A stretch of 59,026 nt of DNA, the filler included, from Basidioascus undulatus (Eukaryota), in assembly GCA_000826855.1 (NCBI GenBank). It is 4 parts of 4 records of this genome, joined end to end, with 100 filler letters (N's around TTAATTAATTAA, not from the genome) between each part and the next. Parts side by side here need not be neighbours in the genome. Positions count along the whole stretch, not along the records: positions 9,753 to 39,555 come from JTLS01000123.1; 3 more parts are not named here. One strand, written 5' to 3'. The position numbers and the translations under genes were made by a program. Every line of letters starts with the position of its first letter. Within the stretch, counting starts at the first letter, position 1. The notes below the pieces were generated by a model, which saw only the letters and a list, made by a program, of their open reading frames with translations, made no database searches and was not told where the DNA came from. Below, piece by piece: positions 9,653 to 49,399 of this stretch.

Positions 9653-9752
9653 NNNNNNNNNNNNNNNNNNNNNNNNNNNNNNNNNNNNNNNNNNNNTTAA
9701 TTAATTAANNNNNNNNNNNNNNNNNNNNNNNNNNNNNNNNNNNNNNNNNNNN
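9653..9752. other. Assembly gap with TTAATTAATTAA six-frame-stop linker
   Basis: N run with identical embedded linker in all three gaps. Confidence 0.98.
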
Positions 9753-10288
9753 GTGTGCGCCGCGCTGCGCTCGAGGCGAAGGAGAAGGGCGAGCTCCCCA
9801 TCGCTGTGCACGTTACCGCCCCCCCGCCGTGGCTCCCCCTCCAGCCGGGCGTCCCTCCTCCTACCCCAGGCATCTCCGCTTCCGGGCACGACACGCGGAC
9901 ATCCACGGCCCACCCACTCCGCCACGCAGTCTTCAACTGCGTCCGCGCAGTCGCGTGCATCCGCTCTGCCTCCCCAACCGCCACCATCAGCACCTCCTCC
10001 GCCCCCGGCTCCGGGCCGCTCCCAACCCAGAACGGCGCCGAGTACCTCTGCACGTCCCTCACGCTCTTCGCGACGCACGAGCCGTGTGTGATGTGCAGCA
10101 TGGCGCTCGTCCACTCGCGCGTACGCGAGGTGTTCTACATCGTCCCCGCGCGCGGGACGGGCGGGTGCGGGACCGTCTATGGCGTGCACGAGATGAAGAG
10201 CCTCAACCACCACTTTGAGGCGTGGCGCTGGGTCGGCGGGGAGGGCCTGGAGGAGGGGCTGGAGATTGATGAGGGCGTTAACCCGTGA
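9753..10288 (+). CDS. TAD3: tRNA-specific adenosine-34 deaminase non-catalytic subunit Tad3/ADAT3, 5' part lost in gap
   Basis: HPLRHAV (Val replaces the catalytic Glu of HAE), YLCT...THEPCVMCSMALVHSR, LNHHF. Confidence 0.93.
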
Positions 10289-11038
10289 GTGGGTAGGTGG
10301 GGAGGGGAGTGAGGGATGCTGCGCAGGCGTGCGCTCTGCTTTTCATGGATTTCCTCGATGCGAAGAGGGCGAGGTGTTGCTGCCGCTGGCTGTCGCCGAC
10401 CTTGTCGCAAGTCACGACTGCTCGACAGGCACCTTGGATTTGTTTTGTTTTGACTCTATCTTCTGAATATTTTCCTCCTGTACAAGTCCTCACTTGACAG
10501 CGTGCTCGCTTTCTGGAACGTCTGTTCAGTCGAGCTTTGGAGCTGATCGAGACTCGGGGCCGCTCGCCGCTGCGGACTCCGGCAGCTTGAACTTCTAGCT
10601 GGATCTTAGCTGCTCCTCTTTTCCATTTCAATGCTTCTGCACTGAAGTACGTTTTACATATCATCTTCGGGACATGGATGCCAGGCCAGAGCATAGAAAC
10701 TGGCAGAAGCGAGGCAGTCGCATTGGAAGTCAGGCCCACGTGAAAGAACGCAGGCTTGGAAAGTGAACGCGCCGACGCGCACCCCTCGCCCTCGTACCTC
10801 ATCATCGCTCTCCACCCTCACGAGTCGTCCCCAATCGGCGTTAAATCTACGCGGTTCTTTGCTCGAATAGAGCGCATTCAGGACGGCCTTCGCTCGCCTC
10901 GTCACCGATAGCGGTTCAGGTGAGCGTTTGGGGCGCGGGAAGAGCGGGTGCGCTCGGATGGTGCTCAAACCGCCGAGATTGCGGCAACCACATTGACTCA
11001 TGTTCTGCCCTTCCCTCCCATTCGTTCTGTTATACAGC

Positions 11039-12290
11039 ATGAACGCGGCTGAGCGTGCGACCCTCCGCGGTCTTCTCGACCGCGATGTAATCGACAAAGC
11101 CAACTCCCTCTGTGCCCGTGCGCGCAAGGCGACCGCGCCCGGAGGCGGGCACGAGCTTCGTGCGGGGGAGACCGCGATTCCTTGGGTCTGTGCCGCGTTG
11201 GCTTGTGAGAGGTACGCTCGACTTTCCAGACATCGGGTCGCGAACTGCAGCTAAACATGGCCGCCGCGGGCGCGTCTCCAGTCTGGGGCAGGCCGACAAG
11301 TTCACCGAGGACATGGCGCAGAAGCGGTCTGCCGTCCGACCAAAAGACTTCAAAGAGGTTGTCCGCGTCCTGCGCGTAGTCCTCGCGCCCAAGCCCGCCG
11401 CGCCGCAACCGGTGGTGGACGGTGACGGACCGCTCACGTACGAGTGGCTCGTGCGCGACTACGCGGTGCCGGCCGTGCACCTGCTGCACATGCGGGAGAT
11501 CTGGGCCGAGTGCAGGGACAAGTGGCTCGCGGTCGAGCCGGGCGCGAAGCGGTTCCTCGGCGATGGGACGAGGGATGAGGTGGTGGGCGCTGTGTTCTGG
11601 GTAGTCTGTTCTCATCTCAACGTACGTCTCCCCCCTCTTTCTTTAGGACGTAGAGGTCTAGGAAGGTTGACGGATGTATGGAGAACGGAATAGATTCCGG
11701 AAGTGCCGGACCTCACGCAGTTCTGCTCGGACTGGCAAATCGACCGCGCGAAGGTCGACAAGGTCGTCAACCAAATAGAGTACAACACGCGCGAGACTCT
11801 CGCCAAGGTCGTAGCGTCCGCTGCTCCCGCCCAGCCTGACAGCCCCTCCTCATCCTCTTTCGTGGTCGCTTCTCCCGAAAAGAGCAAGGCTAGTTCCTCC
11901 GCAGTCGTCAAGTCTGCCGGCACGCCGTCGAAAAAGCGCGTACGTGAGGACGACCCGAACCTGCAGTTTCTTCTCGCCAAGCGCACGCCGTCGAAAGGGA
12001 CGCCGAAGAAGGCTCGCGCAACCTCTACCGCTGCGCCCTCGCCAACGCCCACGCCGCGCAGACAGCAGTCGCTGCCGCCGACACCGACGCCGAAGCGGCG
12101 GCGGGTGGTTTACACGCAGGACATGAGGGAGGAGGAGATGGACGAGAGGGAGGGCACGATCGACGGGTTTGTGATGCCGGAGAAGGAATGGGAGGCGCGA
12201 TGGAGGGAATGGGAGAAGTGGAGGAAGCGGGAAGGCAAGAAGTTCTTAGGGGACGAGGCGGAGAGGAGGGGCGGGGTGGTCGGATCGTGA
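11039..12290 (+). CDS. ORC6: Origin recognition complex subunit 6-like protein
   Basis: N-terminal TFIIB-like segment DKANSLCARAR...GETAIPWVCAALACE, S/TP-rich basic middle, C-terminal W-rich helix (WEKWRKR); introns about 11212-11281 and 11622-11693. Confidence 0.65.
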
Positions 12291-12549
12291 GGGCGGAAGA
12301 GAATAGGAGGACGCTGCTTTGACCACTTGCTACAAGGCTACGGATATATGCTACGGATTTGCCCAACGCACATGCACTACTGTCGAGTGTGCTTATAAGC
12401 TGTGCGTGAAAGAACATATAGCAGTACCTAGCACCCGCAGTTTCCCATGGTCGAACGGGTCGCCTTCTGTGAGAAAAGGTGCTCGCTCAGGTTTTGCGGA
12501 CAGACCGGGTCCCCGTCACGCCTAAAAGCCGCAACAAGCCGCGCTATGC

Positions 12550-13754
12550 GCACAAGCAAGCGCTGCCGACGGAATGGCCCGCCTGACGGGCTGCTCTGTG
12601 GGCATCTTCCACTTCGCAGGCAGCCCTCAATCGCCTGGCATGGTTCGTTCGATCTGTAATTTTTTCCAGCAAGCTGCAGAGGCAGTCGTGAAGCGGCGGG
12701 TACAACAGCGCGGGCAGGGTTTGAAAGCAGCAGGCCGTGTGCGCTGACGGTGCCAGTTCAGACAGATTTCGAAACGTGTATCATGCCCATCGGTATCTCT
12801 CGTGGCTGCGTTTGAAAGGGTAACAGAATGGTAGGGAGCGGGAGCGCCAAAACCTCAGAACATCGAATCTCTACTGAATGTGCATGGACTCGTGAGTCGT
12901 AAGCAAACTGGCACCACGTGAGGACCTGACCGACACAGGTAACGCACAAGCACTGCCTCAAACAGGGTAAAGCACTTTTCCGCATGCACTGAAAGAAACT
13001 GCGTAAGTGATTGCCGTGTTTCAAGCCTTGCGAACTGACCGCGAAAGCGTACTGGTGTATGTGCCTATCTGTAGAATAGGGAGATAAACACCCTAGTCTC
13101 CGCAAATTCCTGACAGGAAAGGCAAAGTGGGCGGAAGAAGCGCACCTTTCAAGACGAGCAAGGCCATTCTCGAGTCTGTCGACGTCCGCCGCGAAGATAC
13201 TCACGATGACTGTCAAGATATTCAGGATGACCGTGAAGATGTACACGATGGTGGTGAAGACCATGAGTGCCACACATTAGACCTTATACCGCTGCCGCGA
13301 CGGCAACGGCGGCTTACGGGGCAAGGGTCTGCGGTGGTCGGAGCCGGCGCGAGCACCGCGCCTGAAACGGCATCCACCAAGTCAACAACTTGAGCGTCCA
13401 TGCGAGCACGCAAATATATGCGCTTTATGACAAAAGTGACCTGGAAGAGCCTGCTGCACCTCCCGCAAAAAGTTGAGCGCGCCGACAACGAAGGTGCTCT
13501 GCGCCTCTGGTCCAGTCCGAACCGTCAACCCCGAGCACTCTCCAAAGTGCCACGAGAGAAGAGTTGTTTACATACCCGCTGGGGGCCCCCAAGCTCCAGC
13601 TCTGAGGCAACTACATGCAGATAGAGCTGGGCGGCGGTGAGGTCCGCCTTGGTCGGAGGGAGGACGACTCCGGCAGCGGCTAGGTTGGCCAAGGTGGCGT
13701 CCAGCGCGGGGTGAATCGTGTTGGGAAGCGGAATGGTAAGAGAGAGGATTTCAT
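12550..13754 (-). pseudogene. Mug135/DUF1773-like gene, copy A (decayed; 3' end approximate)
   Basis: ATG 13754: MKSSLTIPLPNTIHPALDATLANLAAAGVVPPTKADLTAAQLYLHVVASE then donor GTATGT; later VFTTIVYIFTVILNILTVIVSIFAADVDRLENGLARLE. Clear nucleotide and protein paralogy with 16045-16422; family name is inference. Confidence 0.5.
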
Positions 13755-15254
13755 GGCTTTTAGGAGGCGTTAAATTTCCTGCTTAATGGAAGGTAGACGA
13801 CTGGCTTTGACGAGCGGACAGAACTGAGCGTGTGGAAAGGGGGCAAGGGGGTGCATGGGCTAGAGCGGAAGTCCGCAATCCGGTGAATGCAATGGTTACG
13901 CGCCGTCTTGTTCAGGCACTGCGACCACTGTAGTGTTCTGCGTTTTTCAGTGTAAATAATTGTAGGTCGGGTGCAGTAGTACACTGCTAATTTTCTCAAT
14001 AGGGCACAGGTAGTTCGCCAATTCCATCCGTGGGCACCCTTCTTTGCACATAGTCATCTTGCCAAGGCCCTAAGCAAGAAGATGAACCTTGAATGCTGTT
14101 ACAGGCCTGCAATGTCTTAGAGAGGCCCACAAGCAGACACGATGCGGTGCACAACCGACGTCAAGAGGCAAATGCCGTGCACGCTTGACTTCGCGATGTT
14201 TGGAAGCCCTTACGCAATGTCAGATTGAATTCAAGTCGAAACACCCTTGTAGCTAGCCACAAGAGATACAGTGGAGATGAAGGCATGATTGCGAAGGCAG
14301 ACCTTCTCTTCAGCTGACCTGAGCACGCCAATTCTCACATCCGGTTGAGATTCTAAGCGGACGTGCCTTTTCAATTTTTTTTGATAAAGTCGGAGACCAT
14401 CGGCACCCACACATCTACACTGCAGTGGCACCCTGTGTCACCCAGCAAGCTTGTATCGTTACCTCTCTTGTCTCTAGGAATCCATTGTACAGATGGGACG
14501 CCTTTGATAGAAAAACTCATATTTTTACTTACGCATTGTTTTCTGTGGATGCTCTTATGGAGAGGGGGAGCCGTGCAGGTGAATGAACATCTTCGGACCA
14601 CTCTCTTAACACAGCGCCGCATACGCATGCTGTTGCTCAGTTGCTCTCGTTTACACTTCCTCATTGCAGGCAACAGTGTTGTGCACAGTAAAAGACACTG
14701 AAATATTCAAACATTCCCGGCTAGGATATTGACTGCTCCTTGAAGATGGGCGCAAGAGGGATGAGAGCAGAAAACTGATTTTATAAACCATTTCATTCGG
14801 ATGGGTCTCAATGAGCAGTGTTTCTTAATCTTTGACGTAGGTCTCCGGCCGGAACGTGTGGCAGAATGCGGAATATGCTGATGTCTTCCTTATCGTGGTG
14901 CAACCGGGGTCTGAGCGCTCATGAGGTCTGTTCTGTCTACAGCGCGGCCAAGTATCACAGGAAAAGAACCTGTGTAGTATGGCGCGTCTGTGGCGGACTT
15001 GGGCTTAAGCTGTCAGATTTCATTTAACTCCTCATACGTACTCATATGTTCTAGAAAACATACCATCTCGCTCCCTTCCACGGAGACAAACAGCTAGCTG
15101 AGGCGGGAGGCGAAGCGACGCGCGACGGAGTGAAAGCAGCAGAACGCCAGGGCGGCTGTTCCAGCCACTCTCGGTGCACATTTCATGCAAATTATAAGCC
15201 AGACATTGCCCACAATTCTTTGAGGAGAGGGAGAGTAATGCAGGATCGACTAGC

Positions 15255-16422
15255 TCAAGACTCCTTCATGAGGCTGCGTGTCCGCGGAAGATCTGGTTGG
15301 GCGCACGCGCGAACCAGGCATTGAGCTGCGAGTTTTCTTTTTTTTTTCGGGAACACTACAAAATACATGTGTGTGTTCAAATTGTTCTGATCTAGGCTGT
15401 GGGAACTGGCCGCAGGAGCCTGGGTGTTGGCAGCGTCGGCAGCGTAGGGGTCGGGAAAGCGATGGGGCAGGCCGAGTGCCGTGCTGATCGTGTTGTCCAT
15501 CTGCATAATCATAGGTCAGTAAGCGTAGAACTCTTCCCATAATACTCTAGGGTAGGAAACTGGGCGGAATGCGCGTACGTACCCTTGCTTTAAAACGATC
15601 CAGCTGGGTCCCCATGCGGTGAACGCTGATCTCCAAGTCGTTGACACCGATAGCCAGCTTGTTCGCGGCCTCATCAAGCTTTTGCAACCCTTGAATCAAA
15701 GCAGCAGCCCACGGGGGAGTACCCTTTGGGATCGGAATCGACACTGTACCCATCTCGGCTGGCACACAGGATGTAAAGTTAGTGACGTGGTCGCTCATGT
15801 GGATACAAATACCCAAAAGCTCCAGGTCAGTAGCATAGATGGATTTGGTAGTATAATAGATCTTAATTTATGTGTCCGAGCCTGATATATTGATCCCACG
15901 AAGTCCTGCGCGTAGACGAGGAAATGGTGTTTCTTTGTTGGGACATTTGGGAAATCTCTCGATGGTTAATGGTTTGTCGCGCAATCGCGCCAGCCTCGTC
16001 AGATGTTGACATAAGGGAAGGTGTTGCTCACGCGCAAATTATGCATCCTCTGCGACCTCAGCCAAGTAGTGCCACACAGCCGTAAGATCTGCGATGGTCG
16101 GGGGGGCTTACGACCCCCGTAGGCGGCATGTTGGCCAGGTGGCGTCCGGCGCCGGCGTGGATAGGGTTGTGAAGAGGACGGTTAAAAACGGTCCATCTGT
16201 CAACCACGGGCCTCCTCAAGGAACACGAAGAACGCGCTGCCTGTCACTGGAGAACTCACCGTTCGGCGGCAACCTCCATCAGATAGAGGTACGCGGCGGT
16301 GACGTCCGCGTGGGTCGGAGGCACAGCGACGTCGGTAGCGGGCATGAGTCGGCAAGGTGGTGTCCAACGCTGGTGTGCATCGGGTTACGAAGAGGCAGAG
16401 CAGTAAGAGCAGGGGATGCCAT
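15255..16422 (-). pseudogene. Mug135/DUF1773-like gene, copy B, with two tandem N-terminal PPTxAD modules, both frameshifted
   Basis: Module 1 PLRNPMHTSVGHHLAD/fs/MPATDVAVPPTHADVTAAYLYLMEVAAER; intron 16197-16259; module 2 PLHNPIHAGAGRHLANMPPTGVVSP/fs/PTIADLTAVWHYLAEVAE; then GTPPWAAALIQGLQKL..coiled coil..LDRFKAR|IMQMDNT..LDQNNLNTHMYF..KKKRKLAAQCLV. Confidence 0.55.
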
Positions 16423-17367
16423 GGCGTTCTACGTTAAGAAAGAGCTGTTCTCTGCGAGGGAGTGGCGAACACGCTCAGCCTCGTAGCTGCGAGCCGATTT
16501 GAACCCGCCTCCTGCCAGGCCCGCCACTTTCCAGGTTGACATGCTCAGGCCACCATTCTTCTTATTCTTTCCGGCAGATGGACCTGTCTGCGCCGGCTGG
16601 ACTGTGACCTGAGGACGAATCGCCTGCGGTATAATACATATTCCCGCTAATGAGGCCTCCCACGGGCGTGACTGTCAGTTGGTCGCGGACCGCACCAACA
16701 AAGACCAGCAGCTTCACTTACAGTACAAGGGTTTCAAGGGCCGACAAAACATCATCTGTATATCCTTGGATGTCGACGACAGCTTGGGTCTCCGCATCGG
16801 ATGGCACAGGCTTCAAGTCCTCAACCGAGGATGGAGTTGCCGACTCCTAGGCTGGGCCCGCTCACGTCGTAAACCAAAACGTCGAGTGATATAGTGAGGG
16901 ATGATTTGAATGGTTCGTTAGGCATAGATGGTTACGAAGATCATGATGATGATGAGGACGACCGTGTTGGTGGGAAAGCAGAGATAGATGAATTGTAACC
17001 TGTGCTTGGACGGAAGTTTTGTGAGAAAAAGGTTAGTTCAACATAGGCTTTCGGATACTTTTAACCAAAGCTTCCTCTATGAAATCTGTACAATATTGTA
17101 CGGGACCTGCATATTGGGAGAGAGGAAGGTACGTTCCGAGTTGAATGGGGCATTTGGGCTGCGGCGCACGGCGGCCCGAGGCGCCGAAATGAACGTGCTG
17201 AGCAGGCTACTGATCCAGCCGTCGACCGCATCCTCCTCAACTTACCACTTTCCACCCTTCCAATCTTGCTTCCAACCGACACGCCTCTTGATTACGACAT
17301 TCACGACTTAACACCGGAACCAGCTCCCTATACTCTCTCGAACCTATCGATCACGGTCGGGCCCAAG

Positions 17368-39555: not shown

Positions 39556-39655
39556 NNNNNNNNNNNNNNNNNNNNNNNNNNNNNNNNNNNNNNNNNNNNT
39601 TAATTAATTAANNNNNNNNNNNNNNNNNNNNNNNNNNNNNNNNNNNNNNNNNNNN
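39556..39655. other. Assembly gap with TTAATTAATTAA linker
   Basis: N run with linker. Confidence 0.98.
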
Positions 39656-39789
39656 GGTACAGTACCAGCAGTATTTTGGCCTCAGCTCTGCAGGTGCGAG
39701 ACCTGGGATCATCCCCGCTCGGCATTCACACATTCTAACTGTGTACTGGGGTATTTTGTGGTTGGATCAAAAACCGGGATAGTCTTTGG
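39656..39789 (+). pseudogene. Inverted duplicate fragment of the sugar-porter gene (copy of 44124-44264)
   Basis: About 80 nt identical to the reverse complement of the source, then a few substitutions and a 7-nt deletion removing the splice acceptor. Confidence 0.9.
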
Positions 39790-41730: not shown

Positions 41731-44700
41731 TCACTCTTGCCGCTGGGCCTTGACGGCCTTGAACAGCTCGGTGCTGTACTTGCGCGGACGTGGAGCGTTG
41801 AAAACAGCGTCGAGCTCCTCCAACGTGAGTTTCTGAGGTAAAGGTTACCCGTGTTAGCTACTGCAGGTCCAATGTTCGGCGAGGAAAATGTGTGTTTTGC
41901 TTGGTAGTACCTTTGTCTCGACTGCCAAAAAGTAGATCACGACAACGCCGAGTATACTGCAAGGATAAAGTGTTCAGAAAGACGGTATTAAGTATTCGCT
42001 GTTTCGCTACTTACTCGAAGACTACGAAGATCAGATAGGCTGTCGGTGGAAATCCCTATCAGTTGAAAATGACGCGGCGCTCTCCCGGACAGAGACGCAC
42101 TCTTCCAGGCGATTCTCTCCAGCGCAACGGGCATGGCGAATGTGTTGATACTGAAACAAACGGTTCAGTGACTAATCTTTGAATGAATATTGTTCGGACT
42201 GACCAAGACGACGCTTGGACTATGAGGTTATAACAAGCGAGGCCTTTCGAGCGGGACTCGTATGCCAGCACCTCTGCTGGGTAGAGAGCTTGCCTACACA
42301 CATCGATAAAGTCAGAGTCAGAGATCTCAAGTAAGGTGAATTTTGAAGGTGAGAATGACGTACATGGGGGTCCAGCCGAAAGAGAAGAACACCTGATGTT
42401 CAAGATCGTGAGCTCTTGTGTAGTTCATGCAAAGGTGTATTGCGTCTGCAAGTATTTACCATGAAAAGGTAGATAAAGGAAATCCCCGCCGTCGCGCGCA
42501 TTTGCTTTCCAGTGATGTCGGAGAGCAGACCGGCAATAATGGACATGCCGATGCAGCAAGAGACAGAGGAGATGAGCAGGAGCTTGCGCCGTCCAACATG
42601 ATCAACTATCGCGGTCCCTGTGAGGGCGCCGATCATAGAGGTGACACTGTTAAGGACTTATGAGCTTCACAAATAATTCTATCATTAGAAAGCGTGGTCC
42701 TCATACCTGTTGACAAAGTTGAGGACGCGTTGACGATCGGGGCTCCTGAGGACCAAGGGCGAGAACTGAGACGAGAGTGAAAATTGCCGATCTATTGGAG
42801 ACATACGTAATTCCAGCTTGCTCCAGCAGTACGGTCAGGAAGTAGGTCACGAGACCGTTTCCAGAAAGCTGAGGAGCAAACGTCAGGAAAGAAGACAAGA
42901 AGGGCGCAAACTGTTTACCTGTCCCCAGATTGCGACGATTGCCCTGCAGGAGGAAGACGTTCCGCTCAGACATGCGAAAAATGCAGCGCTGGTTTGACCA
43001 CTCACACAAGGACCATCCTGTACCGCTCGGCTGCGGTTGAGAAAAGGGTGCGGAAATCCCACCAGCGTTCTGAGGCGCAGCAGAGTCAACCGCAGTACAG
43101 CATCAGGGAGAAGGGAAGAGCACATGCGCACTGTCGGCCCCGTTGAGCGAAAGGTTTTCTTTGATCTCCTCGATCTCGAGGCGAACGAGAGGCGAGTTGA
43201 CATCGGCATCACGGGAGTGCAGGTTCGCCAGGATCTGGGTAGCCTTCTCGGTATGGCCCCAAGAGTACAGCCAACGGGGACTGAGGAATGCCAATGTCAG
43301 CCTGCTTCCTCAAGGCATTTGTTGGAAGCCTTCACTCACGACTCGGGAAGGAAAAAGACGAAAAAGGCGTTGACAGCGGCGGGCACGGCCTCTGGTAAAC
43401 GAGGACCGTTTTAGATAACGTACGTTGAAGAAAAGGCAAGGCCTGACATACGGATGTATATTGGCAAACGCCAAGCCAGATCGGAATTGTAGCGGCCTGT
43501 AGCGACCGACATGCCGCTCGCTGTGAGTTGACCTGTTTGAGGCCTCAATGTCAGAGACTGCTCTTGGTATATCAAATTACCATATGTGTAGCTTACCGAC
43601 ATAGTAGCTGGAATGATATAAACTTCAGTTTTCCTGGCCCTGTTGGATTTTCAACGGGGAATTTACTCACAAGGAGTTCAGCAGTCCAAGCCAACGACCA
43701 CGGCTGTTGGGCGCGGTGATCTCGACAAGATATGACTTCGCAGGGGTCGCTGCTGTCGAACATCCAAGACCTAAAATAAATTTATTAGATTTGGTTCCAG
43801 TAAAAGACGGTTCATGGAGCGTACCAGTCAAGAACCGCCCGCCAATGAACATCGACGAGCTTGTCGCGTTGGCTGCACCAAGGCCTGCGTGAGCTCTACG
43901 TGCTACGGTGCCACATGTTTTGTTTTTGAAATGCACCGGTAATCATGGCGCCAATAATTAGAGTCATGTTACCAAGGAACATGCACCACCGCCGGCCGAG
44001 CTTGTCGGGAAGGTATGCCGTCGGGATGAAAGCGGCGAGCTGCAGACACCTCGCACAAGCGGGTTAGCATGGGACCCTCTCTTCCATAGTATCTGTAAAC
44101 TCCCCTGGCCTAATGTGTATGCTCCAAAGACTATCCCGGTTTTTGAGCCTAATTTCAACCGAAAAATACCCCAGTACACAGTCAGAATGTGTGAATGCCG
44201 AGCGGGGATGATCCCAGGTCTCGCACCTGCAGAGCTGAGGCCAAAATACTGCTGGTACTGTACCATCGAATTGATTGCGGACATCACCGTAGAATCGAAC
44301 CCAGAATCGCCAGAGCCTGAGTGTATGTCAGAAAGATTTGTTAGTGTCTGTAACCTACACCGTCGTCGCGTCAATCTGACGGCACGGCGACATCCTCTGG
44401 GGCGTCGAGGTAGATGGTGGTATGCAGACTGTACGAAACTCACAGCAACAGATAACTAGGACCATGGCCAACATCTTCATCCCACGCCGGGAAAAGGCCG
44501 GGTATCTAATACGGAGTCGTCACAGATGAGCGCAACCACAGCCGGAGACAGAAGCGGCACTTCGTGCTTACCCGGGATCCTCATCCATTGCCCTCTGAAG
44601 AGCAGCTTGTCTCTCAGCGCTCCCAAGCTTCTCGGTCGAGCTATCGACCGTTCCATATGGCTGGGATTCGTCGGCGAGCTTCTCGTCGATCATGAGGTCG

Positions 44701-49299: not shown

Positions 49300-49399
49300 N
49301 NNNNNNNNNNNNNNNNNNNNNNNNNNNNNNNNNNNNNNNNNNNTTAATTAATTAANNNNNNNNNNNNNNNNNNNNNNNNNNNNNNNNNNNNNNNNNNNN
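49300..49399. other. Assembly gap with TTAATTAATTAA linker
   Basis: N run with linker. Confidence 0.98.

Follow-up and report, generated by a model that had tools for sequence, protein, structure and literature searches.

The locus described here lies in a 59,026-nucleotide (nt) stretch of Basidioascus undulatus DNA (GenBank assembly GCA_000826855.1), referred to as the window, which joins parts of four records with filler between them. Window positions 9,753 to 39,555 come from record JTLS01000123.1. Within this part, between an ORC6-like locus and a STIMATE locus, an island contains three modules, all homologous and on the minus strand, designated A, B, and C. A preliminary description made from the sequence alone had reported three diverged copies of one module at these places and had read them as decayed paralogues of Mug135, the product of the fission yeast gene mug135. 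The copies are borne out, with pairwise local-alignment z-scores of 12.0, 13.2, and 18.5 against 1000 shuffles. Instead of three genes, they make up parts of two, both dead and each with four exons: gene A (13754-12758) and gene B+C (16422-15255). The island is very probably a pseudogene cluster. The best overall explanation, given a probability of roughly 60%, is that its two pseudogenes come from a small fungal family with four exons, restricted to its lineage and probably a remote branch of the Mug135/Tdk superfamily (IPR013902). The parts of the island, from upstream to downstream, are as follows.

16561-16972, minus strand: transcribed stretch upstream of gene B+C, with a spliced intron (16647-16721) and a second hydrophobic segment, and without an intact frame; that it is related to the family is unproven.
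16260-16422, minus strand: exon-1 module of copy B, with its own ATG and one frameshift near 16346.
16197-16259, minus strand: predicted 63-nt GT-AG intron that would join B to C in frame.
16032-16196, minus strand: exon-1 module of copy C, with a frameshift near 16105 and a stop at 16041-16039; its donor at 16031 is spliced in sequencing run X3.
15873-15932, minus strand: exon 2 of copy C, which the observed splice (X3 joint 16032-15932) places in the wrong frame; its 3′ boundary is approximate and a canonical donor was not seen at that end.
15583-15758, minus strand: exon 3 of copy C, a PPW linker and heptad coil in an open frame, with its donor spliced in X3.
15255-15500, minus strand: exon 4 of copy C, a candidate degenerate C-terminal domain in an open frame of 81 amino acids (aa), with its acceptor spliced in X3.
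13576-13754, minus strand: exon 1 of gene A, the N-terminal module, which resembles the Z domain of Tdk proteins and lies in a different frame from the ATG at 13754.
13441-13506, minus strand: exon 2 of gene A, a short helix, with a frame mismatch at the first acceptor.
13146-13361, minus strand: exon 3 of gene A, a decayed linker (two stops, frameshifts) followed by a heptad coil with a 21-nt repeat.
12758-13109, minus strand: exon 4 of gene A, a candidate degenerate C-terminal domain whose homologous part extends to ~12900.

The two genes can be matched along most of their length. Their second exons, both overlooked in the preliminary description, are homologous (protein z 4.8, DNA z 6.2), as are their fourth exons (DNA z 4.9, protein z 4.9), and a 36-nt in-frame intron is predicted before exon 4 of gene A. 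Exon 3 of gene A is assigned because it is positioned between homologous exons; its alignment with exon 3 of copy C is not significant (z 0.4). Both coil exons show a 21-nt period (0.59 in A, 0.42 in C), and the helix and oligomeric state are predicted from sequence. Of the two hydrophobic heptad copies first proposed, the one at 13190-13235 proves to be a genuine 21-nt repeat (identity 0.59 at lag 21 versus 0.26-0.41 at other lags) and forms the coil of gene A. The other, at 16920-16966, is present, but its homology to the first is unproven: the two segments share 27 of 45 nt (codon-shuffle p 0.015), the similarity does not extend to either side, and the upstream segment lacks a 21-nt period. 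A reading of 16720-16850 as the 3′ half of a further copy was unsupported and was rejected.

In gene B+C, the combination of a PPW-and-coil exon (15758-15583) with a tail frame (15500-15255) is present as first described, and the intron that joins them (15501-15582) is spliced in X3. The PPW stands at 15717, between exon 2 and the coil, and has decayed in gene A; PPW alone is common, with 17 matches in 190,796 six-frame positions. An alternative in which the tail is read in another frame downstream of a poly-A run was abandoned, since the originally proposed frame is the one in which A and C align. The predicted 63-nt intron joins B and C in frame, for which the chance is one in three, and because of this join the two copies appear to be one gene with a doubled first exon. 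Among the X3 contig pieces listed, 16032-16342 is contiguous, so that the intron is kept unspliced.

Decay affects every copy found. The preliminary description had at least two modules frameshifted; this is revised upward to all three, and the same is true of a fourth copy on another contig (G000:C782, L006:1433-2199, plus strand), for a total of four out of four, which is a lower bound. Exons 1 and 2 of the fourth copy match the island family and, judged by eye, its later donor context is that of exon 3 of copy C. The present locus encodes no full-length protein and cannot drive. An earlier coding history is nevertheless indicated by the ratio of nonsynonymous to synonymous divergence (dN/dS) over 35 aligned codons, which is 0.39/2.04 for A-C and 0.27/1.10 for B-C. 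Because third positions differ most in these pairs, purifying selection on an encoded protein is indicated in the family's past.

For two sequencing runs, X1 and X2, no departures from the window sequence are listed within the island, and because they agree, the frameshifts and stops are unlikely to be window errors (both runs may be the DNA source). In the third run, X3, at least five GT-AG joints fall in the two neighbouring genes, and the island has at least three joints on the minus strand (introns 15501-15582, 15933-16031, and 16647-16721), all absent from X1 and X2; an X3 contig (13576-13849) also stops at the donor of exon 1 of gene A. Because the spliced joints have no counterpart in the other runs, X3, although labelled “DNA?”, is inferred to be a transcript assembly, with spliced RNA arising from the island. 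Such splicing would be expected if the locus still functioned, either through a spliced non-coding RNA or through short peptides from the N module that serve as an antidote to, or a suppressor of, a cognate driver, and truncated or killing-dead tdk alleles can indeed protect (PMC12930445). A surviving function is nonetheless highly improbable, given that every module is frameshifted before or within its Z-like core, that no intact subfamily member was found against which protection would be needed, and that X3 is not on record as RNA.

The proposed kinship is with the family of tdk1, a fission yeast gene that kills spores. The identity of mug135 with tdk1, and its possession of PF08593, had been stated in the preliminary description and are confirmed in print (PMC11551393). 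Tdk proteins comprise a Z-shaped N domain, a Pro-Pro (PP) linker, a helix, and the IPR013902 domain (PMC12930445). The N region of Tdk1 imposes a tetrameric state that is not toxic and also joins oligomers into toxic assemblies; its stalk forms a coiled coil, and the host target is bound through the C region (PMC11551426). The Schizosaccharomyces tdk genes (tdk1/mug135, tdk210, and tdk203; PF08593, IPR013902, DUF1773) have in common with the island a Z-like N module, a PP linker, a heptad stalk, and a small C-terminal region, and they share with the island family the Z-domain motif spacing, multiple copies per genome, and many pseudogenes; 49 of 93 fission yeast tdk loci are pseudogenes (PMC12930445). 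In contrast, the island genes have no PF08593 match, would encode ~200 aa from several exons as compared with 357 aa for Tdk1, carry the N module twice in tandem in B+C, and are broken in every copy. Basidiomycete IPR013902 proteins, such as A0A067M6Q6 and A0A067MU88 of Botryobasidium botryosum, likewise have a Z-shaped N region and a PP motif and are multicopy (PMC12930445). These proteins are defined by an IPR013902 match, which is absent in the island, and are likened to it by their published description.

The B. undulatus genome also contains three Mug135_C-like genes that are clearly homologous to one another, a number that is a lower bound.

G000:C898, L010:530-1534, plus strand: apparently intact gene of five exons and 202 aa, with one GC-AG intron; its last exon scores 22.1 bits against PF08593.
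G000:C30, L012:666-1638, minus strand: Mug135_C-like gene that seems frameshifted.
G000:C2032, L023:1444-1656, minus strand: Mug135_C-like gene with stops upstream of its last two exons.

Like the island genes, these begin with an exon of ~55-60 aa bearing a PP-helix motif, followed by a short exon 2 and a coil exon. The C898 and C30 genes further resemble exon 4 of copy C in having a phase-0 intron followed by Asn at +3. They differ from the island genes in their five exons, recognizable C-terminal domain, and lack of a PPW linker. Near two of the Mug135_C-like genes are two related decayed genes (L014:5634-5972 and L024:789-1130; 73% identity) without a Pfam match; their start is presumably F-box-like, as judged by eye.

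Motif spacing and the order of parts carry the argument for kinship. A Z-domain pattern, [PI]P-x4-[LIS]-x5-[FY]L, taken from four Tdk rows (PMC12930445, Suppl. Fig. 3e), has six matches in 190,796 six-frame positions, which are modules A and C plus four unrelated places. Shuffled modules match it at frequencies of 0.0005 and 0.00015 (chance ~1 in 1000), and a relaxed pattern, tuned afterwards, covers all four module copies and the C30 gene. In copy C, the PPW follows the module and is itself followed by the heptad coil and then exon 4, as in Tdk proteins. Exon 4 begins directly after the coil, which is where DUF1773 starts in Tdk1, at the end of the stalk (PMC11551393). In copy C, this exon opens with an IPR013902-like start motif, N-x6-G-x-P (0.0009 of shuffles), and has the tail K-x-x-LA (0.035). 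In gene A, which has no PF08593 match in exon 4, the exon carries an IPR013902-like start motif at 13105, LRR-x-G...PY, with one other match in 190,796 positions; that match, within an unrelated, decayed gene on C2032, was set aside as background. As far as motif spacing and layout can indicate, the island genes probably descend from the Tdk/Mug135 superfamily. The paralogues, the decay, and the Tdk-like order of parts in the preliminary description stand, and its assignment to Mug135/Tdk becomes a probable kinship. The island copies are not filed as PF08593 members.

Several results weigh against such kinship. PF08593 (Mug135_C/DUF1773; curated cut-off 23.8 bits) matched none of 26 island frames (10 + 12 + 1 + 3), and a profile built from the C-terminal exons of the C898 and C30 genes found no island match. 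Exon-matched alignments of A and C to these two genes were borderline (p 0.048, 0.076, 0.31, and 0.037), and hhalign probabilities were 1.3% for exon 1 and <1% for whole models and for exon 4. The strict Z-domain pattern misses B and the C782 copy by one residue each, and it misses the C898 and C30 genes as well. The chance figures given for the motifs are too small, because the motifs were chosen after both sets of sequences had been seen. The A-B pair shows no clear selection signal (0.39/0.45 over 35 codons), and no relative was found in any of the protein, metagenome, or viral databases searched.

The reach of these searches has bounds of its own. The genome search for PF08593 yielded a single candidate, outside the island, and the last exons of the three Mug135_C-like genes score 22.1 bits, 14.8 bits, and nothing (C2032) against this profile. 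Because clearly homologous exons fare in this way, the blank for the island is weak evidence. A profile or structural check against DUF1773, named beforehand in the preliminary description as able to overturn its reading, thus found no similarity, but with poor sensitivity. When a module profile was run over 3089 frames, exon 1 of the C30 gene was the top non-self match (7.1 bits, E 0.86). A word-based protein search gave no matches among 595, 12, and 20 candidates (for module A, the PPW exon, and the last exon of the C898 gene, respectively). HMMER with the module profile against 1.84 billion representatives returned three matches, all long repetitive proteins aligning via repeats, which were rejected. 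In the ESM Atlas, the best values were 0.90 (CitG fragments) and 0.86 (unnamed), with both queries below the recognition mark. A search of PDB sequences gave no usable match, and this blank is uninformative because Mug135_C-like control queries also missed Tdk1. The single 20-aa match to metagenome contigs, on a prokaryote-like contig, was judged to be chance.

Structural models were of low confidence. For exon 4 of copy C, a single-sequence AlphaFold2 model had a mean predicted local distance difference test score (pLDDT) of 56, with one helix and no PDB match. For the module, AlphaFold2 gave a helix, a PP turn, and a second helix (pLDDT 62), and a fold search found no PDB match at Z ≥5; the solved Tdk1 structure lacks the Z-domain region.

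Together with the PF08593 blanks and the borderline or null alignments to the Mug135_C-like genes, the lack of a fold match is what would be expected of a lineage-specific family of small proteins unrelated to Mug135/Tdk, subject to ordinary birth and death, in which Pro-Pro turns, short helices, and a heptad coil mimic the layout. This alternative is somewhat unlikely. It would have to accommodate a Z-domain spacing motif expected about once in 1000 by chance and two start motifs placed right after the coil in two paralogues, while PF08593 misses even a clear homologue, C2032. A remote Mug135/Tdk branch remains the preferred origin.

The spacer between the two pseudogenes (13900-15200) has a GC content of 0.49 and a CpG ratio of 0.79, as compared with ~1.05 in the flanks, which fits methylation-linked decay. 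This composition, along with the dispersed fourth copy on C782, would also suit a gene that a transposable element had captured or carried as an accessory, and that was copied along with the element and later decayed. Such an origin is very unlikely, however, since neither three frames from the spacer nor 57 long frames around the four other loci gave a match to a transposon family, the structure is intron-rich, and exon 3 has no relative in viral contigs (none of 22 candidates). Moreover, no long terminal or inverted repeat bounds the island, and the island DNA beyond its left edge has no other copy in the genome.

With respect to the surroundings, the preliminary description had placed the island between ORC6 and a STIMATE-like gene. 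The right flank is STIMATE (PF12400, E 7.6e-15), whereas the ORC6-like assignment of the left flank derives from one exon scoring 16.2 bits against PF05460, under the cut-off of 22.2. At window position 11841, within the ORC6-like gene, all three runs (X1-X3) have C where the window has A. A relic on another contig (G000:C2656, L017:6951-7610), ~72% identical, fuses window 10459-10729 directly to 12094-12509 and thereby represents both ends of the ORC6-like locus without its middle. Further left, window 9755-10285 holds a gene with a cytidine/adenosine deaminase domain (PF00383, 30 bits), which we take to be probably Tad3-like. An inverted pair of 141 nt (39656-39789 and 44124-44264; 92% identity, 4.3 kb apart) begins at a contig end; the two copies are possibly the terminal repeats of a decayed DNA transposon, and none of 14 frames between them matches Pfam. 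The runs of N with an AT linker at 9653-9752, 39556-39655, and 49300-49399 are contig joins.

The history that would best account for the island begins with an ancestor which, by analogy with Tdk1, may have been a homo-oligomer whose subunits had a Z-like module for self-assembly, a PP linker, a stalk formed by a coiled coil, and a small domain at the C terminus. Copies arose by local duplication, coded under purifying selection, and later gained frameshifts and stops, with the first exon present twice in gene B+C and spliced RNA apparently still made. Ancestral drive, drawn by the same analogy, is unlikely; it would make the ancestor either a toxin-antidote driver encoded by one gene or a resistant allele, with decay setting in after its advantage was lost. 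In fission yeast, two of 21 tested tdk homologues drive clearly and one marginally (PMC12930445). The driver idea for IPR013902 genes is already in print in a 2025 preprint (PMC12930445), where those outside fission yeast are proposed as an ancient driver superfamily whose function was not assayed there. In Basidiomycota, 371 IPR013902 proteins are counted in 107 species, with up to 17 per genome, and some are proposed to be drivers (PMC12930445). Of these, 369 belong to Agaricomycotina. A literature search found no title on an experimentally tested basidiomycete driver, with subscription papers mostly outside its coverage. For the island, support for the driver idea is circumstantial only, because it consists of pseudogenes whose kinship is probable.

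A bolder and improbable extension is that the island represents a second, deeply diverged tdk-type driver subfamily in a basidiomycete, invisible to PF08593 and missing from surveys, with its self-recognition module doubled in one gene. If a decaying tandem cluster has indeed been missed by domain searches, the superfamily would be larger, with a faster turnover, than has been counted, and the doubled N module, if real, would bear on the origin of new, mutually incompatible drivers. As a practical lead, the apparently intact C898 gene is the better test subject, and with it, if the second-subfamily reading is true, drive in a basidiomycete would be directly testable.

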